The notes: generated by a model from the letters alone, not told the origin. A stretch of 64,000 bases of DNA from Thermodesulfobacteriota bacterium (GCA_049320885.1 JBMORA010000009.1:96001-160000); one strand, 5' to 3'. Positions 32,619 through 61,265 are shown, counted from the first letter of the stretch. Program-made: numbers and translations.

Positions 32619-35048
32619 TTAATTTTCGGCTCCGGCCTTTTCAAACATGAATTCAAACGGGTTGCCCACCTCCTGGAAAAGGGTTTCCCCTTCCTTCAGG
32701 ATCAGGGCATGTTCCAGCACCTCATCCATGTGTTCCACCGTGATAATTTTGATCTGTTTGGAAATGGCCGTCGGAATTTCCTTCAGATCCTTTTCATTTT
32801 CCTTGGGAATCAGGACGGTTTTAATTTCCCCGCGATGGGCCGCCAGTATTTTTTCCTTGAGCCCGCCGATGGGCAGCACCCTGCCGCGCAGGGTGATCTC
32901 CCCGGTCATGGCCACATCCCGCCGGACGGTCCGTTGGGTCAAGGCGGAAACGATGGCGGTGCACATGGAGATACCCGCCGAGGGGCCATCCTTGGGGATC
33001 GCCCCTTCGGGAACATGGATGTGGATATCGCACTGTTTATGGAATTCATGGTGGATGCCCAGGCGCTGGGCCCTGGAGCGCACATAGCTGACTGCCGCCC
33101 GGGCCGATTCCTTCATGACATCCCCCAGTTTTCCGGTGATGATCAGCTCCCCCTTGCCGGGCATGATGACGGTTTCGACCGTCAACAGATCCCCGCCCAC
33201 CTGGGTCCAGGCCAGACCGGTAACCAGACCGACCTGATCCTTCTCTTCCACCTGGCCGTGGCGGAATTTCGGCGGGCCCAGGTATTTGTTGATGGAGCCG
33301 GAGGTCACGCGGAATGCCCCCGCTTCGCCTTTTTTCACCATCACCTCCCGGGCGAGTTTGCGGCAGATGGCAGAAATCTCCCGCTCCAGATTGCGCACAC
33401 CGGCTTCGCGGGTATATTGCTGGATGATGGTGAAAACGGCGTTTTTGGAGAATTCCACCTCCTGTTTTTCCAGGCCGTTGGTCTGGATTTGTTTGGGAAC
33501 CAGAAACTCCTTGGCAATGTTGTATTTCTCGTATTCCGTGTACCCGGGAATGCGGATGATTTCCATCCGATCCTGCAACGGCAGGGGGATATCCGGCAGG
33601 GTGTTGGCCGTGGTGATGAAAAGAATGTCGGACAGGTCGTAATCCAGATCCAGATAGTGGTCATTGAAATTGTTGTTCTGCTCCGGATCCAGGACCTCCA
33701 GCAAGGCGGCGGAAGGGTCGCCCCGGAAATCCATGCTCATCTTGTCCACTTCGTCCAGGCAGAAAACCGGGTTGTTGACCCCGGCCTTTTTCAGCGACTG
33801 GATGATCTTGCCCGGCAAGGCGCCGATGTAGGTCCGGCGGTGCCCCCGGATTTCGGCTTCATCGCGAACGCCGCCCAGGGAAAGGCGGACGAATTTTCTT
33901 CCGGTGGCCCGGGCCACGGAGCGGGCCAGGGATGTCTTGCCGACGCCCGGAGGCCCGACAAAACATAGAATCGGGCCGCGGATTTTATTCACCAGGGATT
34001 GAACCGCCAGATATTCCAGGATGCGCTCCTTGGGCTTTTCCAGGCCGTAATGATCCTGGTTGAGGATTTCCTCGGCCTTTTGAATATCCTGGTGGATTTT
34101 ACTTTTTTCGAACCAGGGCAGGCTGATGATCCAGTCGATATAATTCCGCACCACGGTGGCTTCGGCCGACATGGGGGTCATCATTTTCAGCTTTTTGAAT
34201 TCATGGCGGACCTTGGTGGTGGCCTCCTTGGACATGCGTTTGCGTTTGATGCGCTTTTCCAGCTCTTTCAGCTCGTCAGCCTGGCCTTCGTCGGCTCCCA
34301 TCTCCTTTTTGATGGCCCGCATCTGTTCGCTGAGGTAATAATTCTTCTGGGTTTTCTCCATCTGGGTCTTGACGCGGCCCTTGATCCGCTGTTCGACGTT
34401 GTAAATCTCAATTTCCGCCTTGATCAGCTGCAGCAGGGTCGAAAGCCGGTTGCCGATGGAGACGTCCTCCAGCAACCGCTGTTTGTCCTGAATTTTGAAG
34501 GAAAAATGGGCGGCGATGGTGTCCGCCAGCTGGGACAGGTCGGAAATGGACGCCGCGTTGGAAATCAAGTCCTTGGAGATGCTTTTGTTGACATTGGCGT
34601 ATTCCTCGAAGCTTTTGAGGATGGCCCGTTTGAGGGCTTCGCCTTCCGCTTCCGATACCGTGGTTTCCGGAATGGAAGCAAGTTCGACCTGAAAGAATTG
34701 CTCGGCGGAAACATACCGGGCGATGCGGGCCCGGACCTTCCCTTCCACCAGGGCCTTGACGGTGCCGTCCGGAAGACGCAGCAGCTGCAGCACGTTTCCG
34801 ATGGTGCCGACTTTGTAGATATCTTTTTCCGTCGGATTGTCGATGTTGGCCTTGTTCTGGGTGGCCAGAAAAACACTTTTATCCCGGTTCATGGCATCGG
34901 TAAGCGCGTTGACCGATTTGGTCCTGCCCACAAAAAGGGGGGCGACCATATGCGGGAACACGACAATATCCCGCAGGGGAAGCAGGGGAAGCGTGATATG
35001 GGTCTCGTCGTGGTCGTCCTGTTTGAACAATTTGGGTATGTTGATCAT
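32619..35048 (-). CDS. lon: ATP-dependent Lon protease
   Basis: [28 protein letters not shown] and IGGLKEK; follows clpX; start placed at ATG 35048. Confidence 0.97.
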
Positions 35049-35169
35049 AGCTGGCTCGATGTTTCCGCTCGGATGATTCCGGCTTTGAAGGGGGATTGGG
35101 GCGCGCCAAGTGTTCCACATCCCCATGCAACGTATGGTTCAGGGTGACCTGCCGAATTGGTTGCTGCGT

Positions 35170-45710: not shown

Positions 45711-48059
45711 ATGTCTGACAATCCGCTATCGATGGAAATTGATCCGAATACTATGCCGAAACAATTGCCGATACTGCCTCTATTCGAGGTCGTGCTGTTT
45801 CCCAAGATGGTGCTGCCGCTGGTGGTGATGGAAGGGCAGTCGATCCAGCTCATCGACGAAGCCATGGCAAAGGACCGCATCATCGGGCTGGTCTCCTCGC
45901 GGAAATCCGAAGTCAGCGAATCCTATACGCCGGATAACCTCTATACCGTCGGCACCTCGGCCGTTATCCTCAAAATGGCCAAGGCGGATGAAAACAAGGC
46001 CCAGTTGATGGTCCAGGGGATCAGCCGCTTTAAAATCGAGCGCTTTGTGGACGGCAAGTCCTACCTGCAGGCCCAGGTATCCCCGGTTCCGGACAAGGCG
46101 GCCGACGACAAGGAGTCGAAGGCGCTCATGGCCAATCTCGTGGATCTCTACAGCAAGGTGGTGAAGCTCTCCCCCAGTCTACCCCAGGATATCAGCAACA
46201 TGGCCCGTTCCATCGAGGATCCGGGCATTCTGGCGGACATGGTGACCTCCACGATCAACTCTTCCATTGAGGAAAAACAGAAAATACTGGAAATACAGGA
46301 GGTAAAAAAACGCCTGAAAGAAGTCACCCGCATGGTCAACTACCAGCTGGAGATCCTGGAGCTGGGAAGCAAGATTCAATCCCAGGTCAAGGGAGACATG
46401 GACAAGAAACAGAAGGAATACTATTTGCGCCAGCAGCTGAAGGCCATCAAGGAAGAACTGGGGGAAACCGATGAATCCAGTGTCGAAATCGATGAATACC
46501 GGGCGAAAATCAACGAGAAACAGCTTCCCGAGGAGGCGTTGAAGGAGGCCGAGCGGGAATTGAACCGGCTCGGTCGCATGCATCCGTCCTCCTCCGAATA
46601 TACCGTTTCTTCCACGTATCTGGACTGGCTGACCAGCCTTCCCTGGAACGAGAGCACGGAGGATAATCTGGACATCGCCAAAGCCAGAAAGATCCTGGAC
46701 GACGATCATTACGGGTTGGAAAAGGCCAAGAAACGGATTATCGAATACCTGGCGGTTCGCAAGCTGAAACCGGATTCCAAAGGTCCGATTCTGTGTTTCG
46801 CCGGCCCGCCCGGCACGGGGAAAACCTCCCTGGGCCATTCCATCGCCAAGGCCCTGGGCCGGAAATTCATCCGCATCGCCCTGGGCGGCGTGAGGGACGA
46901 GGCGGAGATCCGGGGGCATCGCCGCACCTACGTGGGGGCCCTGCCCGGCCGCATCATCCAGGGCATCCGGCGGGCGGAATCGAAAAATCCGGTTTTCATG
47001 CTGGATGAAATCGATAAGGTCGGCAGCGATTTCCGGGGAGATCCTTCCTCGGCCCTATTGGAAGTCCTGGATCCGGAGCAGAATTTTTCCTTTTCCGATC
47101 ATTATCTGGACGTGCCCTTCGACCTGTCCAAGGTGATGTTCATCACCACCGCGAATGTCCTCGACACCATCCCGCCGGCCCTGCGGGATCGCATGGAAGT
47201 CTTGCAGCTGCTCGGTTATACCGAGGAAGAGAAGATCAGCATCGCCAACCGCTACCTGATTCCGCGTCAACGGGACGAGCACGGACTCAAGACCAAGCAG
47301 TTGGCCATTTCAACCCCGGTTCTCCGGCATATCATCAGCGGTTACACCCGGGAGGCCGGTTTGCGGAATCTGGAGCGGGAGATCGCCGCCATCTGCCGCG
47401 GGGTGGCCGCCAACATCGCCGAGGGGAAGAAAAAATCGGTTTCCATCGCCATCAAGGATATAGCCGATTATCTCGGACCGGTCCGGTTCACTTCCGAGGA
47501 AATCACCAGGGTCGGAACACCGGGCGTGGCCATGGGTCTGGCGTGGACGCCCGCCGGAGGAGAGTTGCTGTTCATCGAAGCCACGGCCATGAAGGGCAAG
47601 CACGGTCTGACCTTGACCGGACAACTGGGCGATGTCATGAAGGAGTCCGCCACGGCCGCCCTGAGCTTCATCCGATCAAACGCCAAAAGCATCGGCGTGC
47701 CGGAAGATTTTTTTGAAAACCGGGATATCCATGTGCATGTTCCGGCAGGCGCGATTCCCAAGGACGGTCCTTCCGCCGGAGTCACCATGCTGACGGCGCT
47801 GACCTCCCTGCTGACCGGCAAGCCGATCCAGGAAAAACTGGCCATGACCGGAGAAATCACCCTGCGCGGGCAGGTCCTGCCGGTGGGCGGCATCAAGGAG
47901 AAAGTGCTGGCGGCCCATCGTGCCGGAGTCAAAACCATTATCCTGCCCAAATGGAATGAAAAGGATCTGTTCGATATTCCGGCCAATGTCCGCAAAAGCA
48001 TCAAGTTCCATTTTGTGGACAAGATGAGTCAGGTGCTGAAGATCGCCCTGCGCAAATAA
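45711..48059 (+). CDS. lon: Second ATP-dependent Lon protease
   Basis: [29 protein letters not shown] and VGGIKEK. Confidence 0.96.
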
Positions 48060-51780: not shown

Positions 51781-53268
51781 CTAGTGATCCAGATCCCGGA
51801 AGCGATTCAATTCGGCCAATGCCTCCATGTCCTTTTTATATAATGCCTTCCAGCCGACTTTGCGGACAAGTCTTTCGTAATGGCGCTTCAGGAACGGTTT
51901 GAAGGCGTACACCCAGATGGCGGTCCACAACTTGCCCTGGTCGCGGGTGCGCCGGGTCGGATCCCACCAGCCCAGCACATTCTGGCGGTGATACCAGAAC
52001 AGATATTGCAAGTCCTCCGCCTCCAGGTGGCGGGTCCGGACGTTGGCCCATAGCCCGTTATAGCGCTTATAATCCGTACGGTTGGCCACCAGACCCTGGT
52101 CGATCAGTTTTTGGCGCATGCCGGTTTTGGGATACGGGGTCAGGATTTGGACGTAGGCGGCATCCGTCTGGATGTCATTGAGAAACCGGTAATTCTCGAT
52201 GATGGCGGTTTCGTCGTCGTCCGGGAAGCCGAAAATCAAACCGCCGATGACCATGATGCCGTATTTGTGACAGTTCGCAACCGCCTTGCGGGAGGCGTCC
52301 ACGATATTGCCCTTCTGGGCGGCTTCCAGGTTTTTTTGGGAGGCGTTTTCTATTCCCAGGAAAACGGATTTGAACCCGGCCAGGGCCATTTTCCGGACCA
52401 TCTCCTCTTCCCGGGCCATGGTCAGACAGTCCGCCTGGACCACGATGTTCAGATTTCGGTATTTCCTCGCGATAATGGCGTCGCACAGCTCGATGACCCG
52501 TCCGGGATCCAATACCAGGTTGTCGTCCACAATAAAAACCCAGCGGGTCTTGCGGTTGTGGTAGATGTCGTCCAGATCCGAAAGGACCCTCTCCAGGGGA
52601 AAGACACGGAAGGATCTTCCGTACATATGCTTCATGCTGCAGTAATTGCAGTTGCGGGTGCAGCCCCGGGACGTCTCCATCAGCTCAATTCTGGAATACA
52701 TGATGTGATAACCCCAGGTCAGGCGGCGTTTGTCGCGGATGGGCAGTTTGAGGGCGGCGAGGTCCAGGTTTTCCGATCGCGGATTGTGCACGAACACGCC
52801 GTTCTCCTTGTAGGAGAGGGAAGGGATCGCGCGGATGTCGTCTTCATCGGCAAGGGCGTTGACCAGCCGCCGGCAAGCTTCCTCCCCTTCCCCCCGGATC
52901 ATGAAATCGATCCAGCGGGCCTCCTCGGAAGCGGCGATTTCCTCGCTCATCAAGGTGGCATGATAGCCGCCGATGACGATCTTGACTGTCGGCCGGAGCT
53001 GTTTGATCAGACGGATCAGGCGGACACAGGTGTCATACTGCCAGGCCATGGCCGACAGGCCCACGAGGTCCGGCTGGATGCGGGTGATGATCCGGGTCAC
53101 ATACCGACGCAGCTTTCGGCGCTCACGGATGAGATCGACAATGTAGACTTCATGGTGGTCATCGATGTTGCCGCCCACGCTGGCGATTCCGTGGCCGGGC
53201 ATGTGGATGGCGGAATGGTGAATGATCATCGGCGCCACATCGGGCATGGACATCAGGATGACTTTCAT
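51781..53268 (-). CDS. Cobalamin-binding radical SAM enzyme
   Basis: B12-binding region (DLVGLS, GGYHAT, GEGE), SRGCTRNCNYC, DDNL and TPYPKT. Confidence 0.9.
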   Translation of the reverse strand: MKVILMSMPDVAPMIIHHSAIHMPGHGIASVGGNIDDHHEVYIVDLIRERRKLRRYVTRIITRIQPDLVGLSAMAWQYDTCVRLIRLIKQLRPTVKIVIGGYHATLMSEEIAASEEARWIDFMIRGEGEEACRRLVNALADEDDIRAIPSLSYKENGVFVHNPRSENLDLAALKLPIRDKRRLTWGYHIMYSRIELMETSRGCTRNCNYCSMKHMYGRSFRVFPLERVLSDLDDIYHNRKTRWVFIVDDNLVLDPGRVIELCDAIIARKYRNLNIVVQADCLTMAREEEMVRKMALAGFKSVFLGIENASQKNLEAAQKGNIVDASRKAVANCHKYGIMVIGGLIFGFPDDDETAIIENYRFLNDIQTDAAYVQILTPYPKTGMRQKLIDQGLVANRTDYKRYNGLWANVRTRHLEAEDLQYLFWYHRQNVLGWWDPTRRTRDQGKLWTAIWVYAFKPFLKRHYERLVRKVGWKALYKKDMEALAELNRFRDLDH

Positions 53269-53310
53269 GGTTCCTCTCTTTGTATCGGTTTCGGTACGCT
53301 CACCGGCATG

Positions 53311-54126
53311 TCAGTCCGGACCGGCCGTATCCGCAGGACCGGGGTTCCGGGTCTGGGGCTCCAGCAACTGCCTAACCTTTTCCATTACTTGGGATGTCGA
53401 CCCGGAGGGCCCTTGCCTGTCCGGGGGAAGGATGCCCATCAGGTCGACCCGGATGGGACTGCCGCCGCAGGTATGAAACAAGAAACGGCCCGGCTGAAAC
53501 AATTGATCCGTATTCCGGATGCGGACCACAGCGATGGGGGCGCCGTGTCTTCTGGCGATGGAGAAGGCCCCTTTGTTGAATTCGCCCAGGCGGCCGTCAC
53601 GGCTGCGGGTGCCTTCGGGAAAGATGAACAGATTCCCCCCGGATGCCAGAAACGCCGGCATGCGGTTCATCTGGCGGATCAGAATGTCGGCGAAGTCCCC
53701 TTTGGCCTCGGAGGGCATATAGCCGGAAAGTTTCAACATCCGGCCGAAAACCGGGATGCCGAACAGCCCGCTTTTGACGATGGTCTTGTGCCTGGGGTAA
53801 ATGGACATCAACAGCAACGGGTCCAGGTATGACAAATGGTTGCTCACCACCACCGAGGAGCGCACGGCTTTCACATCCGGGTGGATTTGCAGTTTCCGCC
53901 AGGGCATGAGGAGCCGGATCAGCAGGAACAAACCCTTGTAAAAAAAATGATTCAAGCGTTGATAGGCCGTTTCCCGCCAGCCGGCGAACGGAAACGCCGC
54001 TAGGTACCAGAGGGCGAAAAACACTAAAAATCCCGCCGTGTAATAGGTCCACAGCACCAGGGTGATGGCCAGATCGGGAATGATCCGGAGCGATGCGGCC
54101 ATGACCGGCGGAATGGTTCGCTGCAT
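53311..54126 (-). CDS. PlsC-like (lysophospholipid) acyltransferase
   Basis: NHLSYLD and FPEGTRS motifs, N-terminal TM. Confidence 0.9.
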   Translation of the reverse strand: MQRTIPPVMAASLRIIPDLAITLVLWTYYTAGFLVFFALWYLAAFPFAGWRETAYQRLNHFFYKGLFLLIRLLMPWRKLQIHPDVKAVRSSVVVSNHLSYLDPLLLMSIYPRHKTIVKSGLFGIPVFGRMLKLSGYMPSEAKGDFADILIRQMNRMPAFLASGGNLFIFPEGTRSRDGRLGEFNKGAFSIARRHGAPIAVVRIRNTDQLFQPGRFLFHTCGGSPIRVDLMGILPPDRQGPSGSTSQVMEKVRQLLEPQTRNPGPADTAGPD

Positions 54127-54127
54127 G

Positions 54128-55366
54128 TCAGGAGTCCGCTTTTTTCAGCAACAGGCAGGTGTTCACGCCGCCGAAGGCGAAATTTTGAATCGCGGCGACG
54201 CGGATGTCGGCTTCCTGCAATTTCGTGGCGTGCCGGATCATGGCGCAGCGTTTGTCGATTTCCACCAGATTCAAGGTCGGGGCGATCCAGCCTTCCGCCA
54301 TCATGTACAATGTCAGGATGGTTTCGATGACGCCGCAGGAGCCCATGGTGTGCCCCATATAACTTTTCAGGCCGGTGACCGTGGGTCCGTCGCCGTAAAC
54401 CCTGGCAATGGCCTGGGCCTCAATGACGTCCCCCATCTTGGTGGCCGTTGCATGGGCGCTGATCAGATCCACGTCGTCGGAAGTGATTTTGGCTTCCGTG
54501 AGTGCCAGCTTCAGGGTCTGGGTGATGCCGTCGATATTGGGCAGGACAAGGTCCCCGCCGTTGTTGTTGCAAGCAAAGCCGATGATTTCGCCGAGGATCG
54601 GCGCACCCCGCCTGCGGGCGAATTCATATTCCTCCAGCATCACGGCGCCGGCGCCTTCGCCGACCACCAGCCCGTCGCGTTGAACATCAAACGGCCTGGG
54701 CGTCAAATGGGGCGTGTCGTTAAAGCGCGTGGAGCAGGCCAGCAGATTGTCGAAAACCGCCACGGTGGTGGTATCGTATTCATCCGCGCCGCCGCAGAGC
54801 ATGGCGTCCTGCAGGCCGTATTTAACGGCTTCATAGCCGAAGCCGATGGACTGACTGCTGGTGGTGCAGGCCGTGGAGGAGGAGATCACCCGGCCGGTTA
54901 TGCCGAACATTTTGGTGATGTTGACGGCCGTCGTATGCACCATGGATTTCAGATAGTCCACCGCGCCGATGGAGGAGAACTTGGTTTTGGAGCCGCTGAA
55001 GAAGGTTTTGTAAATATCCCGCTGGACGGTGGGGCTGCCGTGGGTGGAGCCGAAGGCCACTCCCAGGCGGCCGGAGCCGATGAAGGTGGGTTCCAGACCG
55101 GATTGGGCCAGCGCATCCTTGGCCACCTGACAGGCGTAATACGCCACCGGACCCATGGTTTTACTGTACTGGCGCTTGAAATCGTAAGCGATGGGGTAAT
55201 CCACGGTGCCAAAAACCCCGGACTGAATGTACTGTGAAAGCAGGCCGTCGTCCCTCAGCGGTTTCACGCCGGAAATGCCTTCCAGTAGATGCCGGCAAAT
55301 TTCCTTGGGGGTGTCGCCGATGGGTGTTATTGCAGAACATGCTGTAATTACGACTCTTCTGTCCAT
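54128..55366 (-). CDS. Type II beta-ketoacyl-ACP synthase (FabF/ApeO-like)
   Basis: TACTTS catalytic Cys, HATAT, KSYMGHT and NFAFGG. Confidence 0.92.
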   Translation of the reverse strand: MDRRVVITACSAITPIGDTPKEICRHLLEGISGVKPLRDDGLLSQYIQSGVFGTVDYPIAYDFKRQYSKTMGPVAYYACQVAKDALAQSGLEPTFIGSGRLGVAFGSTHGSPTVQRDIYKTFFSGSKTKFSSIGAVDYLKSMVHTTAVNITKMFGITGRVISSSTACTTSSQSIGFGYEAVKYGLQDAMLCGGADEYDTTTVAVFDNLLACSTRFNDTPHLTPRPFDVQRDGLVVGEGAGAVMLEEYEFARRRGAPILGEIIGFACNNNGGDLVLPNIDGITQTLKLALTEAKITSDDVDLISAHATATKMGDVIEAQAIARVYGDGPTVTGLKSYMGHTMGSCGVIETILTLYMMAEGWIAPTLNLVEIDKRCAMIRHATKLQEADIRVAAIQNFAFGGVNTCLLLKKADS

Positions 55367-55399
55367 GTTTGCCCCGTTAAACCAAAGCGGAAAAGGCGT

Positions 55400-55660
55400 T
55401 CACCCCCGGCTTCTGCGGGAGGCCATCAATTCAATATAATCCAGAATCTGGCGAATGGTGCGAACCTCCATGGCGATTTCCTTTTCTTCGCGGCTTAATT
55501 CCGTGTCCAACATGATCTCGATCTCCCGCAGGAGTTCGATGCCGTCGATGCTGTCAAATCCATGCATATCCCGCAAATCATCGTCCAGGCCCGGGTTGTC
55601 GATCTCGAACGAATCCCTGAAAATCCCCCGTATCCTGGTTTGTATTTCTTCCCGTGTCAT
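55400..55660 (-). CDS. Acyl carrier protein
   Basis: Small acidic protein with GFDSIDGIEL phosphopantetheine site; start placed at ATG 55660. Confidence 0.88.
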   Translation of the reverse strand: MTREEIQTRIRGIFRDSFEIDNPGLDDDLRDMHGFDSIDGIELLREIEIMLDTELSREEKEIAMEVRTIRQILDYIELMASRRSRG

Positions 55661-55843
55661 CAATGCCCGATCTTCCAAATTGAATAAATGAACCGTTTTA
55701 CGCGCCGTCCCGAGCCCGGCCATTCCGTCCTCCGCAACCATGGGCCTTGTCTGCCGATGAAAGGCCAGCGGCGATGTCCATCGGCGAAAACCCCCGATTC
55801 AATACTACACAACCCGACTCAATTCAAAAGAAAAGTGGCGGAT

Positions 55844-56737
55844 TCATCCATCCGTGCCGTTGTTTTCCAGAAACGGCTCAAAATGATACCATTCAAACGG
55901 GTGACGGCGCAGGGCCTGCTCGAGGGTGTCCGCGTACTGCTGGGCTGCCCGCTGGATGGCGGCCTCCCTTTCCGCGCGGGCGGTTGTTTTCAGAAACATG
56001 GGCGGCGACAGGACGAAATGATATTTCCGGGCGTCCAGGCGGAAGGCAAAAAAAATGAACAACGGCGCCCCGGAGACCTGGGCCAGGGTGAAGGGCGCCA
56101 TGGGGAGCCGGATGGGGTGTCCCAGAAAACGGGCGGGAACGGAGCGTTGCTCCGGTTTCCAGATGATGTCTCCGGTCTGAAGGACCAGGCCGCCTTCCCG
56201 GATGAAACGGACCCCCTCCAATATGTCCAGGGGAGACCCCTGGGCTGTATCCACCGCCAGGATGCGGATGCCGCTTTCCGCAAGGTTCTGTTTTTGGAGG
56301 CGTTCGATTTCCTCCTTGTCGCGGATTCCCATATACATCAGCAGACGCATGTCCTGCCATTGGCGCTGCAAGAGATGGGCGGCCACATCCCAGTTGCCCA
56401 GGTGCGACATTAAAATGATCCCGCCGGTTTTGTCGCGCATGGCGGCCTCGATGTGGTCATGGCCTTCGGATGTGAAGCTGATGGCATCCGTCGTCCGCAC
56501 CAGGCAGCGATCCCAGAAAACGGTGGTGAACTGCTGGAACTGCCGAAAAGTGCACCAGAGATGATAATACACGGATCGGCCGGGAAAAAGGGCGCGGTAA
56601 AACCGGAGACCCACGCCCACCCTGCGGGGAAACAGCAGGAAATATCCGGCGGCGATTCCTCGCGCGACAAGGATGAACAGCCAGTCACCCAGGACGGCGG
56701 ACAGCAGGGCCAGAAGACGATAAAAGACCGCCCGCAT
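55844..56737 (-). CDS. LpxL/HtrB-family ACP-dependent acyltransferase
   Basis: SHLGNWD (HX4D), FLG.P and HPFEWYHF. Confidence 0.85.
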   Translation of the reverse strand: MRAVFYRLLALLSAVLGDWLFILVARGIAAGYFLLFPRRVGVGLRFYRALFPGRSVYYHLWCTFRQFQQFTTVFWDRCLVRTTDAISFTSEGHDHIEAAMRDKTGGIILMSHLGNWDVAAHLLQRQWQDMRLLMYMGIRDKEEIERLQKQNLAESGIRILAVDTAQGSPLDILEGVRFIREGGLVLQTGDIIWKPEQRSVPARFLGHPIRLPMAPFTLAQVSGAPLFIFFAFRLDARKYHFVLSPPMFLKTTARAEREAAIQRAAQQYADTLEQALRRHPFEWYHFEPFLENNGTDG

Positions 56738-56738
56738 G

Positions 56739-57572
56739 TCAAGACTCCCGTATCGGGCAGGGGGCGGGCCGTCGGCGCAGGCGCCCCGGAAGAAACAGTC
56801 TCAGGACGATCAGGCGTCCGAATGTGGCGGTATTGCGCATGAAATCCACGAAGGGCCGGAAATGGGAGATTCTTCGCCCGCCGGATTGATAGACCACCCC
56901 CACCGGTATTTCTGTTACGGGCAGTCCTTTCCACTGCGCTTTTACCAGCACTTCCACCTCAAACTGGAACCTCCGGGAGCGAACCCCCAGGTGCAGCGTC
57001 TCCGGCAGCGGATACAGCCGGAATCCGCTTTGGGAATCCGTCATGCGCGGTCCGCCCGCGGCCCATACCCAGAAATTGGAAAACCCCCTGCCAAAGCGGC
57101 TGGTCCAGGGCGCTTTTTCGGTCCGCATGCCGGTGCGGCGCCCCACAATCAGGGCGCGTCCTTCCGTCATGCTGGCCCGGATCAATAACCGTGCGTCCCC
57201 GGGGTTATGCTGCCCGTCGGCATCCAGGGTGACGGCCCAGTCCGCTGTTTCAGCGGCCTTCACAAGACCGGTCACGATGGCCGCGCCCTTGCCCAGATTG
57301 CGGTCATGACTCATTATCCGGATGCCGTCCATTGTCCGGAGGATGTCGCCGGTCTTGTCCGTGGAGCCGTCATTCACCACGATCACCGGAAGCCGCAGCT
57401 TCAAGGTTTCGCGGACAACCTCCGCCACCTTGCTTTCATGGTTGTAAACCGGAATCACCACTGCGATGCGGTGACGGGAAACAGGGGCGCCGCCTTCCAT
57501 GGCGGCCGATGGATGCCCCTCGGCAGGGGCGGGGCGGTTTCCGGCCCCAGCGCTTTCCCGGTTATTCTCCAT
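56739..57572 (-). CDS. GT2 glycosyltransferase
   Basis: IPVYNH, VNDGSTD, GKGAA, DADGQH and DSQSGFRLY. Confidence 0.9.
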   Translation of the reverse strand: MENNRESAGAGNRPAPAEGHPSAAMEGGAPVSRHRIAVVIPVYNHESKVAEVVRETLKLRLPVIVVNDGSTDKTGDILRTMDGIRIMSHDRNLGKGAAIVTGLVKAAETADWAVTLDADGQHNPGDARLLIRASMTEGRALIVGRRTGMRTEKAPWTSRFGRGFSNFWVWAAGGPRMTDSQSGFRLYPLPETLHLGVRSRRFQFEVEVLVKAQWKGLPVTEIPVGVVYQSGGRRISHFRPFVDFMRNTATFGRLIVLRLFLPGRLRRRPAPCPIRES

Positions 57573-57927
57573 ATACCGTAACGGTTTCGGTCTTCCAGAC
57601 GCCTAGAATATTAAAAATTTCCTTGTCGGCAAAATAGACGGTACGCAGGTGGTGCTTCCGGGCGATATCCCCGATTCCATTGGAGTCGATTTCAGCATAG
57701 AACCCGTAACCGGAAAACGGCTCTTTGACCTGGATCATCCGGCCGTTATAATCCTTGGATACAACCGTGGGGGTTTGATTCAGATTGGTGGTGAGCGGAA
57801 CCGTCACCCAGGTAAACACCGCGCCGGGCAACATTTTGGCTGCGCATCCCATCAGCAGGGGCGGCAGGAGCACCAGCATGGTCAAAAGAGTCAGAGGGTT
57901 GCTCTTGGGGTAACCTTCAGTCGCCAT
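57562..57927 (-). CDS. TRL-like lipoprotein
   Basis: Lipobox LMGC, G..FT..T.PL, and ending ADKEIFNILGVWKTETVTVYGE; start placed at ATG 57927. Confidence 0.65.
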   Translation of the reverse strand: MATEGYPKSNPLTLLTMLVLLPPLLMGCAAKMLPGAVFTWVTVPLTTNLNQTPTVVSKDYNGRMIQVKEPFSGYGFYAEIDSNGIGDIARKHHLRTVYFADKEIFNILGVWKTETVTVYGE

Positions 57928-58219
57928 ACACCACCACCCGCCAGCGGGTATACAGCCCCAGGGCGACTTGAAAAATCTCCTGGTCGGCATGGCGCATGAC
58001 CGTGATGTTGCCGTTGCGCGCCGCGGCGGCGTAACCCGCGTCACCCCAGGCCACCAGCCACAGAACGCTGTAGGCTTCCGCCGTACCGACCTTGGTTCCC
58101 AGCTCCGTCCGGTCCAGATCGATATCCAGGGGGGTTTTGGTGTTGACATAGGCGCAGCCTCCGAGACACGTGAGCAGTATCCCCAAGACCAGGATCGTTC
58201 TGCCGGGATGGGTTTTCAT
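57917..58219 (-). CDS. TRL-like family lipoprotein
   Basis: Lipobox LGGC, SVLWLVAWGDAG..AAA.NG.I, and ending ADQEIFQVALGLYTRWRVVVYGD. Confidence 0.78.
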   Translation of the reverse strand: MKTHPGRTILVLGILLTCLGGCAYVNTKTPLDIDLDRTELGTKVGTAEAYSVLWLVAWGDAGYAAAARNGNITVMRHADQEIFQVALGLYTRWRVVVYGD

Positions 58220-58395
58220 GATGGCATACCTTTATCAAGAATTACGATTTGTTGAACCGCAGCGGTCCAGTTCTATTTTGTCTATAACACGCCGGACCGT
58301 AAATTTCTATGGATTCCTCGGAGGCGGATAGCGGGTCCTGATGCAGTTAAAAGCAGGGCCTTTCGGAATACGACGATCCACAATTTTTTCAGACC

Positions 58396-58424
58396 TTGAC
58401 ATGGCCATATTGATGGCCTATTAT
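58396..58424 (+). promoter_or_regulatory. TA operon promoter with twin operator boxes
   Basis: TTGACA-17 bp-TATTAT; ATGGCCAT (58401-58408) and ATGGCCTA (58413-58420) lie across the spacer. Confidence 0.75.
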
Positions 58425-58430
58425 ATTGCC

Positions 58431-58673
58431 ATGATTCATGTCAATATCGCAAAATTTAAAGACAACATCAGCCAGATGCTGCTTTTGGTCGAAAAGGGAC
58501 AAGAGATTGCCATATGCAAGCGCAATGTTCCCATCGCCAATTTGGTGCCCATTGAGCGGAAGAATATTTCCAACCGTACGCAACTCGGCTGCGGAAAGAA
58601 AAGTGTGAAGATCAAAGCCGACCCGACCCTGCCGATGATACCGGAAGATCATTGGGACATGTTGACGGAATGA
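58431..58673 (+). CDS. Phd/YefM family antitoxin
   Basis: VNIAKFKDNISQML..VEKGQEIAICKRNVPIANLVP; ATGA-coupled to the PIN toxin. Confidence 0.88.
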   Translation: MIHVNIAKFKDNISQMLLLVEKGQEIAICKRNVPIANLVPIERKNISNRTQLGCGKKSVKIKADPTLPMIPEDHWDMLTE

Positions 58674-59062
58674 AGCTGATTCTCGACACTTGTTGTATCC
58701 TCTGGTCTGTATCCGATCCGGATTCCCTGTCCAAAACCGCCAGATTGCTGCTGCAGGACGAGAAAGCGGAGATTTTTGTTTCACCCATCAGTTCCGCCGA
58801 GATCGCATGCGCCACCGAGAGAGGCAAGATCGAGCTGGATCGTCATTGGAAGGTATGGTTCCGTCACTTTGTCACTTTGAACGGCTGGGGAGTGGAAAGC
58901 ATTGATTTGGCGATCATGGAGGAGGCTTATTCTTTACCGGAGAGGTTTCATGCGGATCCAGCCGATCGAATTATTACGGCGACCGCCAGACTTCGCAACT
59001 ATACGCTGGTGACCGCCGATCAGAAAATTCTTTCCTACCCGCACGTCAATGCCATATGGTAG
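58670..59062 (+). CDS. vapC: PIN-domain toxin
   Basis: LILDT, SPISSAEI, HADPADRIITATA and LVTAD. Confidence 0.9.
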   Translation: MKLILDTCCILWSVSDPDSLSKTARLLLQDEKAEIFVSPISSAEIACATERGKIELDRHWKVWFRHFVTLNGWGVESIDLAIMEEAYSLPERFHADPADRIITATARLRNYTLVTADQKILSYPHVNAIW

Positions 59063-59124
59063 CGGTTGCTATGTCAGCAGCCGGCCTCTCATGGTTGACT
59101 GGTACCGCATCCGGCTTCCCATTG

Positions 59125-60843
59125 TCATGGTAAAAACGCCAGGCCCCATGTTCCCGGACCCATGTGGGCTCCGGATGTCAGGGAAAGGGGTTGCAGGAGG
59201 ATTTCCGCCTTGGGGTACCGTCGGGTGATCTCGGGCAGAACGGTTTCCGCCACCCAGGGACGGTTGTCCGAGTATTCCAGCATGATCATCGGGTTGTCGG
59301 CCGCCGTGAATGTCGCCTGGAGTTTTTCCAGGGCGAAAAGGACCTGCTCCTTCCTGTTTTTCACCACCCCGGCTTTTTGAGCGCCTTCCGCCCGGGGGCT
59401 GATAATCGGCTTCATGTGCAGCAGATCGCCGAAAAACCCGCTGGTTTTGGACAACCGGCCTCCGGCCGCCAGGTATTTCAGCCGTTCCAGAAAAATATAT
59501 TCCTCGCATCGCTGGATGGCGGCGGCGGCGAAATCCAAAACCCGGCGACCATCCGGTTCCGTCAGGGCAAGCCGGGCCGTTGCCAGGGCGATCATCCCCA
59601 GTCTGCCGGAAGCGGCCGTCGAGTCGATGATGGTCATGCGATCCTCGGGATCATTCTCCATCTTCCAGGTGGTGGCGATATCATGGTTGCCGGTATAAAC
59701 GGAGCCGACGCAGAGGTAGAGCACCCGGCGGTAGCGGCTCAACGCGCTGGCATAGCACTGATGGCGCTCGAAAACCGAAGCCTGGGCCGTGGAGACTTTC
59801 ACCCCCCGGCGCATGGCGGCATAGAGTTCCCGCGGGTCGGCCAGGGTTTCCGGAAGGCAGTTCTCACCCATGACGAGATAACTGTCCAGCAGGGTCATCC
59901 GGTACTTGCGGGCATCCTCCTTGGTCAGGGAGCCGGCGGCGTCGGTCATGATGTGAACCGCCGCCTCGTCGGGCAGGGGGGCGCCGCCGACCCGGTTGTC
60001 CAGCGGTTCATCCGACCATTGCAGAACATCCCCCAGGGATTCGATGGCTTTTCGGGCCGCATGACGATCCGACGTGTGCAGATGAATCTTGATCCGGGAT
60101 TCTTCCGGAATCACGACGACACTTTCGCCCAAGGCCGACAGGGCCTTCACATCCGTATCGGACATGCGTTTCATCTTCACCAGGGTGTCGACACAATATC
60201 CTTCGGCTGCCACGGCCTCAAAGTTCCGGGCAATCCGCAGCCGGCCGGAAAAAATCTCGGTGACGGGCGCAACGGTGACGGATCGGTCCGCCAGATGCCG
60301 GAAAAAGCCGTCGAGGTAAATATACATCCCCAGCGCCCCGGCATCGACGACACCGGCGTCCCGCAACACCGGCATCATATCGGTGGTGGAACGGACCGTG
60401 GCCTGCAGATAGTCGATCAAGGAGCGGCAGAGGGCTTCGTCCTCGAAGGGAATGGGGCGGTGTTGCTGCCGGCCCATGAATTCCGCGAGGGCGTCGAAGA
60501 CGGTCAGCATGGTGCCGGGTTTGGGAGCCACCACTGCCTTCCGGGCCGCGTCCCGACCCGTCTTGGCAGCTGCATGCAAATCCGCGGGCGAGCCGCAAGC
60601 CAGCAGCTCGTTGAGAAAGCGATTGGCGATGTTGCCGGAATTGCCCGTTGCCGCGCGCAGCAGGTTGCCGGCCACGGCTTCCAGGTTGTCGTTCATCCGG
60701 CGCAGGGGCGCCAGGCTGATTTTCAAATTCCGGCCCGTATCCGCATCGGCCACGGGGAATACATTGATCTGATCCAGCAGGTCGGTCCAGGAGACCAGGC
60801 ATTCATATCCGGTGACAAAGGCCTGCCGCAGCCGTCCATCCAT
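59125..60843 (-). CDS. DAK2 + DegV fusion (fatty acid kinase FakA/FakB-like)
   Basis: N-terminal INVFPVADADTGRNL, GNSG, GTMLTV, VVDAGA, KIHLH; C-terminal DegV IMTD, STAQ, IDS, GGRL, KPII, AHMGPG. Confidence 0.88.
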   Translation of the reverse strand: MDGRLRQAFVTGYECLVSWTDLLDQINVFPVADADTGRNLKISLAPLRRMNDNLEAVAGNLLRAATGNSGNIANRFLNELLACGSPADLHAAAKTGRDAARKAVVAPKPGTMLTVFDALAEFMGRQQHRPIPFEDEALCRSLIDYLQATVRSTTDMMPVLRDAGVVDAGALGMYIYLDGFFRHLADRSVTVAPVTEIFSGRLRIARNFEAVAAEGYCVDTLVKMKRMSDTDVKALSALGESVVVIPEESRIKIHLHTSDRHAARKAIESLGDVLQWSDEPLDNRVGGAPLPDEAAVHIMTDAAGSLTKEDARKYRMTLLDSYLVMGENCLPETLADPRELYAAMRRGVKVSTAQASVFERHQCYASALSRYRRVLYLCVGSVYTGNHDIATTWKMENDPEDRMTIIDSTAASGRLGMIALATARLALTEPDGRRVLDFAAAAIQRCEEYIFLERLKYLAAGGRLSKTSGFFGDLLHMKPIISPRAEGAQKAGVVKNRKEQVLFALEKLQATFTAADNPMIMLEYSDNRPWVAETVLPEITRRYPKAEILLQPLSLTSGAHMGPGTWGLAFLP

Positions 60844-61265
60844 CAGCTGGCCTCCAGCGCCATCCGGATGTCCTCCGGTATTTCGAACAGCAATTCCATT
60901 TCCGGCATTTTCACGGCCACCTGTTCGCTTTTCCCTTTGGTGCAGACGGTATTGCTCCGGACAAGCCGGATTTCAAAATCCAGGGAGATTTTGTATCTGG
61001 CTTCGGTCACCGTCGCCCGGCAACTGAATTCGTCCTGGTACCGCAACGGAATGATGTATTTGGTGGATGTGCGGGTGATGGGGAAGATGATCTGGTTTTC
61101 AAGGGAATAGGCATGCAGGTCGACGCCGCAGTTTTTCAACAGGGCGAATCTGGCCATGTCAAAATATTTGAAATAGTTGCCATGCCAGACAACCTGCAGC
61201 GGATCCAGGTCGTGAAAGGGAACGGCCAGCATGATTTCAAATCGTTTGGGTGTTTCGGGTTTCAT
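60843..61265 (-). CDS. Acyl-CoA/ACP thioesterase (4HBT/YbgC hotdog)
   Basis: FHDLDPLQVVWHGNYFKYFDMAR; stop overlaps the DAK2-DegV start. Confidence 0.9.
   Translation of the reverse strand: MKPETPKRFEIMLAVPFHDLDPLQVVWHGNYFKYFDMARFALLKNCGVDLHAYSLENQIIFPITRTSTKYIIPLRYQDEFSCRATVTEARYKISLDFEIRLVRSNTVCTKGKSEQVAVKMPEMELLFEIPEDIRMALEAS

Follow-up and report, generated by a model that had tools for sequence, protein, structure and literature searches.

The window analyzed here is a 64,000-nucleotide stretch of Thermodesulfobacteriota DNA (G000:C9:96001-160000) from a 98% complete, 5.6-Mb source genome (G000) whose relatives are named as Desulfobacterales, Desulfobulbales, and Syntrophales. It holds a block of ten minus-strand genes (51781..61265) that an initial annotation had read as a specialized lipid or glycolipid cluster, and Pfam bears out all ten. 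From its upstream end, the block encodes a hotdog thioesterase of 140 amino acids (60843..61265, 4HBT); a one-piece fatty-acid kinase of 572 amino acids (59125..60843); two TRL-family lipoproteins, TRL1 (57917..58219, PF13146, lipobox LGGC) and TRL2 (57562..57927, a weak PF13146 match, lipobox LMGC); a family 2 glycosyltransferase (GT2; 56739..57572, PF00535); an LpxL-type acyltransferase (55844..56737, Lip_A_acyltrans, PF03279); a dedicated acyl carrier protein (ACP) of ∼87 amino acids (55400..55663, PP-binding, PF00550); a ketosynthase (KS; 54128..55366); a PlsC-type acyltransferase (53311..54126, PF01553); and a radical S-adenosylmethionine (rSAM) enzyme (51781..53268, B12-binding and Radical_SAM). 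Four junctions are exactly as first described: a TGATG overlap at 60843, an 11-bp overlap at 57562-57572, and 1-bp gaps at 56738 and 54127. The GT2 start at 57572 is uncertain, with alignments beginning only at about residue 31-35 in five of six relatives compared; the probable starts of TRL2 and the ACP are ATG 57927 and 55663/55660, respectively. All ten genes are indeed co-oriented, but the run is not unbroken, as a plus-strand Phd/PIN pair (58431-59062) had been overlooked.

The KS and ACP are not the housekeeping FabF and AcpP, an identity that the initial annotation had proposed to check. The KS scores 284 bits against TIGR03150 (cut-off 494) and 396 bits against PRK09116 (cut-off 470), and the ACP scores 24 bits against TIGR00517 (cut-off 70). 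A separate acpP-fabF pair on contig C33 passes both cut-offs (FabF 623 bits, AcpP 100 bits). The best PDB matches of the KS are 4EWG (PpApeR, 328 bits) and 7F27 (AbApeR, 312 bits), versus 221 bits for FabB; both structures are ApeR proteins (PMC8358021, accessible text). A 27-row KS tree, the phylogeny suggested at the outset, places the window clade as sister to two ApeR proteins (support 100/99) and a fused KS-chain length factor (CLF) on contig C39 as sister to ApeO (99/99), giving this genome KSs of both clades that define aryl-polyene (ape) clusters; the tree keeps one long branch, a KS from contig C49, that joins nearby. A PDB search with the ACP gave nothing informative.

Catalytic motifs are invariant or nearly so in every enzyme of the block and in its ACP, as judged from 39-113 orthologues each. 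The KS retains C167/H305/K334/H339 together with Y138/F205 (113/113 orthologues), and the ACP retains S38 (107/107). Equally constant are D21/H28 of the thioesterase (39/39), D68, D117-x-D119, and H122 of the GT2 (62/62), H97/D102 of the PlsC-like enzyme (102/102), and H112 of the LpxL-like enzyme, whose position 117 is E or D in all 73 orthologues. The rSAM enzyme has its CxxxCxxC motif in 65/65.

A search with the 18 Ape proteins of Escherichia coli CFT073 (gene names per PMC8253772, Table 1) shows how these enzymes correspond to an ape pathway. Eleven of the 18 have their best G000 matches at three loci: ApeR, ApeK, ApeJ, and ApeD in the window, ApeQ, ApeP, ApeO, ApeI, and ApeE on C39, and ApeM and ApeH on contig C38. 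The thioesterase is the best genome match of ApeK (69 bits). The two halves of ApeJ are split between neighboring genes, residues 8-231 finding the GT2 as best genome match (99 bits) and residues 357-549 the LpxL-like enzyme (50 bits); an ape cluster of Pseudoalteromonas likewise encodes GT2 and LpxL in two genes. The attachment enzymes ApeD, ApeJ, and ApeK thus all have their best genome matches among the window genes, the margin for ApeD being small. The ketoreductase ApeQ, the dehydratases ApeI and ApeP, and the transporter ApeM have counterparts genome-wide, on C39 and C38, and none inside the window. ApeE matches a C39 ACP (53 bits), C38 carries an ApeH-like ligase (95 bits), and the C-terminal half of the C39 fusion matches PF13723 (Ketoacyl-synt_2, 31.7 bits). 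For 9s5h, the top PDB match of this fusion, no paper could be identified. These correspondences uphold the view of a specialized, non-housekeeping lipid cluster resembling ape clusters.

The window itself has no CLF, dehydratase, LolA, or MMPL orthologue, as first noted, and its sole ketoreductase-like match is an unrelated short-chain dehydrogenase/reductase (SDR) at 16.6-17.4 kb. The missing functions, including an AMP ligase, lie on C39 and C38 of the same genome, and the stand-alone pathway first proposed does not survive this finding. The C39 piece (∼65.9-80.4 kb) encodes a B12-rSAM enzyme, a DUF3261-like lipoprotein, LolA, FabG, an ApeP-like dehydratase, an ACP, the KS-CLF fusion, a TIGR04072 rSAM enzyme, an ApeI-like dehydratase, a second ACP, two rSAM enzymes, two KSs, a thioesterase, and a dehydratase; its LolA and DUF3261-like genes were identified by Pfam. 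The C38 piece (∼20.2-30.2 kb) encodes a GT25-like protein, an MMPL-methyltransferase fusion, a deacetylase, a SPASM rSAM enzyme, and an AMP ligase.

Both the block and its association with the other pieces are conserved. KS orthologues (69-92% identity) occur in 42 of the 151 genomes sampled from the order and in 23 of 301 from the phylum. Among the order loci with flanks (38 of the 41 other KS carriers, many broken by contig ends), the ACP is found in 35, PlsC in 31, LpxL in 29, GT2 in 28, the kinase in 25, the thioesterase in 22, and the rSAM enzyme in 19. A GTDB set of 80 loci, four of which repeat order genomes, has 43 with flanks of ≥6 kb upstream and ≥5 kb downstream; there, the ACP and PlsC are present in all 43, the rSAM enzyme in 35, the kinase in 33, LpxL in 31, GT2 in 30, and the thioesterase in 13. 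Gene order in these 43 loci is conserved far above chance, as the initial annotation had anticipated. In the order, 39 genomes have both the KS and a C39 rSAM marker, 3 the KS only, 2 the marker only, and 107 neither; for the KS and the C38 MMPL gene, the counts are 38, 4, 2, and 107. These counts include related genomes that are not independent, and no p-value is attached to them. The three KS carriers without the C39 marker are G036 (61% complete), G149 (89%), and G112 (95%), and the latter two still carry the MMPL gene. The three pieces form one contiguous ∼30-kb cluster in 8/8 relatives, which were selected for having KS and MMPL genes on one contig and are related to one another, and they are interleaved in Desulfobulbales. 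Judged by gene content and linkage, the window block and the C39 and C38 pieces make up a single conserved ape-related cluster that is widespread in sulfate reducers.

The gene identities, intact motifs, correspondence to ApeR, ApeK, ApeJ, and ApeD, and linkage with C39 and C38 provide the basis for a proposed pathway, modeled by analogy with the aryl-polyene lipid (APEL) of Xenorhabdus. In the APEL model, a conjugated acyl chain is built on ApeF and placed on sn-2 by ApeD, ApeJ adds GalNAc and then acylates it with an ApeE-bound chain, and ApeM/L/N export the lipid (10.1101/2020.12.19.423268). By this analogy, the window block is likely to build the glycerophospho-glycolipid anchor for an outer-membrane lipid, a reading held with reasonable confidence. 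The ApeR-like KS would extend an acyl chain on the window ACP with the help of the C39 FabG and ApeP/ApeI-like dehydratases; double bonds are probably retained in the chain, because no enoyl reductase is recognized among the scanned genes. The thioesterase may then free or proofread ACP-bound chains, and the kinase would convert the free acid to an acyl-phosphate from which PlsY could acylate sn-1 of glycerol-3-phosphate. The PlsC-like enzyme would put an ACP-bound chain on sn-2, the GT2 would attach a sugar, and the LpxL-like enzyme may acylate this sugar with a second chain supplied by the KS-CLF of C39. Export would depend on MMPL (C38) and on LolA and the DUF3261-like protein (C39). The window B12-rSAM enzyme would serve as an optional acyl-chain tailoring step.

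Relative to the ape clusters of E. coli CFT073 and Xenorhabdus doucetiae, the window holds an ApeR-clade KS and counterparts of ApeK, the ApeJ halves, and ApeD, whereas the equivalents of ApeO-C (fused, the ApeC half putative), ApeE, ApeQ, ApeP, ApeI, LolA, and the DUF3261-like protein lie on C39 and those of the MMPL transporter and AMP ligase on C38. The additions here are the Dak2-DegV kinase, several rSAM enzymes, two more KSs, a second thioesterase, a deacetylase, a GT25-like gene, the methyltransferase fused to MMPL, and often a PlsY variant; ApeB is missing from the three loci.

The kinase is a distinctive one of these additions. It consists of FakA_N (Dak2), FakA_M, and a full DegV domain without FakA_C, as seen by Pfam and in a structural model (predicted template modeling score, pTM, 0.91), and its PDB matches are FakA (7w7h/8vip) and DegV/FakB. 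Residues N27/D33/D35, C217/H254/H256, and T352/Q354/R463/H560 are invariant in 57/57 orthologues. Staphylococcus aureus FakA needs an Asn/Asp/Asp triad and a Cys-His-His zinc site (PMC11617999, accessible text), which the first two sets match, and the enzyme is predicted to be catalytically intact. Like the FakA/FakB system of Staphylococcus and Streptococcus (7W7H, 8VIP), it combines the kinase and zinc-site residues with a complete DegV domain for fatty-acid binding. In contrast to that system, it is a single chain in which the fused DegV domain replaces both FakA_C and a separate FakB, it is restricted to pathway carriers within the order, and no PlsX partner was found. No other Dak2 domain was found in G000, and a separate DegV gene lies on contig C61. 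Thirty-eight order genomes have both the KS and the kinase, 4 the KS only, 2 the kinase only, and 107 neither; in the phylum sample, all 23 KS carriers have the kinase, as do four more genomes without a scored KS. The fusion itself is not unique, as the Dak2-DegV architecture is common in other phyla and is even found fused to PlsY.

Acyl-phosphate is passed either to PlsY or, via PlsX, to ACP, according to the accessible text of PMC10848957. A search for PlsX (PF02504) was positive in 0/151 order genomes, G000 included, with a control search positive in 9/14. The initial annotation had a scavenged fatty acid placed on the ACP, which would need PlsX; because PlsX was not found, a PlsY is the more plausible recipient of what the kinase makes. 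In 7 GTDB loci and 3 of the 8 superclusters, the cluster itself includes a divergent PlsY gene, and 18 of 21 low-scoring PlsY matches fall in the 44 pathway genomes. A general role for the kinase as a PlsX substitute in phospholipid synthesis was rejected: PlsX was not found with or without the kinase and an ordinary PlsY occurs in 114/151 genomes, so the kinase cannot serve as the acyl-phosphate source throughout the order. Most of these genomes, in none of which PlsX was found, also lack the kinase, leaving the acyl donor of their PlsY unexplained.

Several observations weigh against the assignment of an APEL-like, anchor-assembling role. Identity to the Ape proteins is just 29-42%. ApeA, ApeC, ApeG, and ApeN have no match in G000, ApeB, ApeF, and ApeL have their best matches outside the three loci, and the ApeF search did not reach the window ACP at E<0.01. 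Bearing on an aryl (4-hydroxybenzoyl) starter are the ApeH-like ligase on C38 and the retained Y138/F205 of the KS, but a dedicated aryl-starter gene was not recognized, so an aryl head is unproven. The preference of ApeD for the window PlsC (46 bits) over the housekeeping PlsC (44 bits) is marginal. The cluster-type PlsY is absent from G000, and the sn-1 step there would therefore depend on its ordinary PlsY; the genomes that carry an ordinary PlsY mostly lack the kinase, so the presence of PlsY does not single out the kinase route. The way in which the eight contiguous superclusters were chosen also tempers their weight. Finally, no in vitro hydrolysis was seen with ApeK, and E. coli lacking apeR could still make the main APE lipid (PMC8253772, in the text available).

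One alternative is that the pathway yields a membrane phospholipid or lipid-A-like species that is modified but not pigmented and has branched or unsaturated acyl groups at both glycerol positions, the GT2 and LpxL enzymes acting on lipopolysaccharide-type acceptors. The dedicated Fak, the PlsY variant, and PlsC make up a full phosphatidic-acid route in relatives, the KS-adjacent GT2 and LpxL genes are missing in ∼30% of well-flanked loci (present in 30 and 31 of 43), and a PagL-like gene occurs in nine loci. This alternative is nevertheless unlikely, as both halves of ApeJ find their best matches in GT2 and LpxL and are also encoded separately in Pseudoalteromonas, and as dedicated MMPL, LolA, and DUF3261 export genes stay with the pathway.

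A second alternative, that the three loci make a ladderane or another polycyclic or cross-linked fatty acid that the window block joins to glycerol, takes up a likeness raised by the initial annotation. The likeness fails for the window rSAM enzyme, which scores 104 bits against TIGR04072 ("rSAM_ladder_B12," cut-off 360), and was rejected for it; it holds for a C39 enzyme that qualifies at 382 bits and is accompanied by the KS-CLF fusion and three more rSAM enzymes. Relatives add a phytoene-dehydrogenase-like gene (17 loci) along with MMPL, ligase, and deacetylase genes, classes common to the Kuenenia stuttgartiensis and Desulfotalea psychrophila loci (PMC2649909). As far as the accessible part of that account goes, the resemblance to these two loci is by gene class, in FAS-II (type II fatty acid synthase) paralogues, rSAM enzymes, an MMPL-type protein, a ligase, a glycosyltransferase, and a deacetylase; to this may be added the TIGR04072 member on C39, the same host phylum, and related loci in Desulforhopalus. 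The differences are that the window's own rSAM enzyme lies outside TIGR04072 and that the accessible account does not mention a DegV fusion. The window has as such none of the anammox Cluster I set (amxACP, amxFabZ, FabF2/FabFmut, phytoene dehydrogenase, and B12-rSAM), and no close phytoene-dehydrogenase orthologue was found in G000, where the best match (26%) lies on another contig. Clusters like these were described in 2009 from D. psychrophila, Geobacter, and Pelobacter, and the available text reports that D. psychrophila yielded no ladderanes (PMC2649909). "Ladderane" biosynthetic cluster calls in Desulfobacterota have no assigned function in what is accessible of PMC9902471; the ladderane pathway is unsolved according to the accessible parts of four sources (PMC4790861; PMC10139942; 10.64898/2026.05.19.726425; PMC13459092), two of which (10.64898/2026.05.19.726425; PMC4790861) indicate that no candidate gene has been tied to ladderanes experimentally. 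On balance, ladderane synthesis is quite improbable. The earlier accounts also qualify the description of the pathway as undescribed: this remains apt for the product and is not so for the cluster type, since FAS-II/radical-SAM clusters in deltaproteobacteria have been known since 2009 (PMC2649909).

The original proposal, in which the block alone would scavenge a fatty acid, extend it on the ACP, modify it radically, and transfer it to a glycosylated acceptor, is very improbable, for although the block is detached from the other pieces in G000 and its gene order is preserved across many relatives, it has neither ketoreductase nor dehydratase, no PlsX was found to pass acyl-phosphate to the ACP, all but 3 of the 42 KS carriers have the C39 marker, and the rSAM gene is missing in 17 of the 42.

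Within the favored anchor-assembly pathway, the window rSAM gene is accessory, as are the TRL genes. It occurs in 25 of the 151 order genomes, all of them KS carriers, and one of the 17 KS carriers that lack a full match has a frameshifted copy. TRL1 is found in only 2 of 38 order loci and 4 of 43 GTDB loci and TRL2 in 3 and 5, which is why the lipoproteins are regarded as accessory. The rSAM enzyme passes no NCBIfam cut-off (BchE, 169 bits) and forms its own family at >50% identity (856 bits versus 472 for the next, the names of its nearest outgroups being automatic labels). Structure and atlas searches with its model return fold-level matches only, to AprD4, TsrM, MgmA, OxsB, CysS, and TokK. 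It shares its fold and B12-binding plus CxxxCxxC architecture with cobalamin-dependent rSAM enzymes such as TsrM, TokK, CysS, MgmA, OxsB, BchE, and HpnR, yet is only 16-20% identical to the solved ones. Sister-clade enzymes (38-42% identity) lie downstream of KS, CLF, and AMP ligase genes in 27 of 35 well-flanked metagenome loci, many of them closely related, with an ACP in 26; this context points to an acyl-ACP or lipid substrate for the window enzyme. Most B12-rSAM enzymes are methylases (accessible text of PMC13142503). The optional tailoring step is most likely C-methylation of an unactivated acyl-chain carbon, although this is close to an even call against C-C bond formation or oxidation. 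A connection with 10-methylhexadecanoic acid, a marker of Desulfobacter and anammox bacteria, was considered as well, but the term occurred in none of the papers listed by the literature search. A different type of cluster surrounds the sister-clade enzymes (L181, L199, L209, L229-L234, and similar loci), comprising an LpxL-like acyltransferase, KS, CLF, a FabH-like protein, AMP ligase, ACP, an esterase or small unknown protein, the B12-rSAM enzyme, and an SDR.

The distinctive parts are the one-piece Dak2-DegV kinase confined to pathway carriers and the optional non-TIGR04072 B12-rSAM enzyme (25/42); the cluster type was already known. Literature searches, with subscription papers and bioRxiv supplements outside their scope, turned up no paper that describes the product or reports a Dak2-DegV fusion from clusters of this kind, although 42 of the 151 order genomes and 23 of the 301 phylum genomes carry the cluster family. 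How radical SAM enzymes modify acyl (non-isoprenoid) lipids is nearly uncharted, with only ladderanes and the Jaw5 product named in the accessible text of a 2026 review (PMC13459092). The kinase, lacking FakA_C, offers a natural test between two competing Fak models. Cultured carriers include Desulfogranum japonicum DSM 18378, Desulforhopalus sp. IMCC35007, and Hydrosulfovibrio ferrireducens CB1MN, and Desulfosarcina ovata subsp. sediminis carries the window-type rSAM enzyme. Because cultured carriers exist, lipidomics is feasible, in contrast to the situation in anammox bacteria. A tentative and on balance doubtful extension is that about a quarter of Desulfobacterales might make an exported glycolipid whose polyene chains, while bound to the carrier protein, are remodeled by as many as six rSAM enzymes, with C-C bond formation akin to ladderane chemistry; the thioesterase and kinase would replace PlsX in feeding PlsY, and the window B12 enzyme would be the first characterizable member of an rSAM family acting on ACP-bound acyl groups. 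If ladderane-like remodeling does occur, ladderane-type radical lipid chemistry would become testable in cultured carriers outside anammox bacteria.

Other loci in G000 and its relatives show related gene sets. The C38 piece is followed by a second AMP ligase, an ACP, a 455-amino acid protein without Pfam or NCBIfam match, and a TIGR04072-like rSAM enzyme (358 bits; C38:30146-34640, L152), each of these genes recurring in at most one other fetched locus. C39 has a tandem pair of paralogous rSAM genes (C39:74348-76509, L069:14349-16510) that are mutually 30% identical and have no NCBIfam match; the second, with 76-83% identity across carriers, is the most conserved pathway marker tested. About 17 kb before the window, a TIGR04072-like rSAM gene (296 bits; C9:76505-79021, L239) is divergent from an O-methyltransferase gene that is the best match of ApeB. 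Two more clusters, read from open reading frame starts and KS matches only, are a complete FAS-II-like one at C49:38492-44064 (SDR, FabH-like, FabG, FabZ-like, KS, ACP, PlsC-like) and a set of very large multi-KS frames at C43:5381-20988 resembling a polyunsaturated fatty acid-type synthase. Some relatives (L060, L135, L143, L149) add BtrH/DUF4872, FabH-like, ABC transporter, PagL-like, or U32 genes, which are typical of flexirubin-like clusters.

The genes bordering the block were rejected as pathway parts, as the upstream S8 peptidase and downstream RecD2 genes are adjacent in the closest relatives only (2/43 and 1/43, respectively). The S8 subtilase, which has a PPC domain (61272->64000), ends 6 bp ahead of the thioesterase gene. 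The Phd/YefM antitoxin (58431..58673, plus strand, a weak PF02604 match) and VapC-type PIN toxin (58670..59062, plus strand, PIN 50.7 bits) form a 0.9-kb toxin-antitoxin insert that is antisense to the operon, with a GC content of 0.49 versus 0.57-0.63 for the flanking genes. It is lacking in the same-genus genome G111, in which the kinase and TRL1 genes are ∼30 bp apart, and in locus L072; the pair is a recent insert and no part of the pathway. A promoter-like TTGACA-17-TATTAT (58396-58424) precedes it, with a palindrome (58403-58418) between the -35 and -10 elements; a scan for promoters and terminators was at chance level overall (8 versus 5.6 ± 2.4). The Phd ATG lies just 6 nucleotides past the -10 box, and its transcript is possibly leaderless. 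Elsewhere in the window, translations reveal two Lon-type protease genes less than 11 kb apart (32622-35126 and 45711-48059), one behind tig-clpP-clpX and the other behind an Hsp20-like gene.

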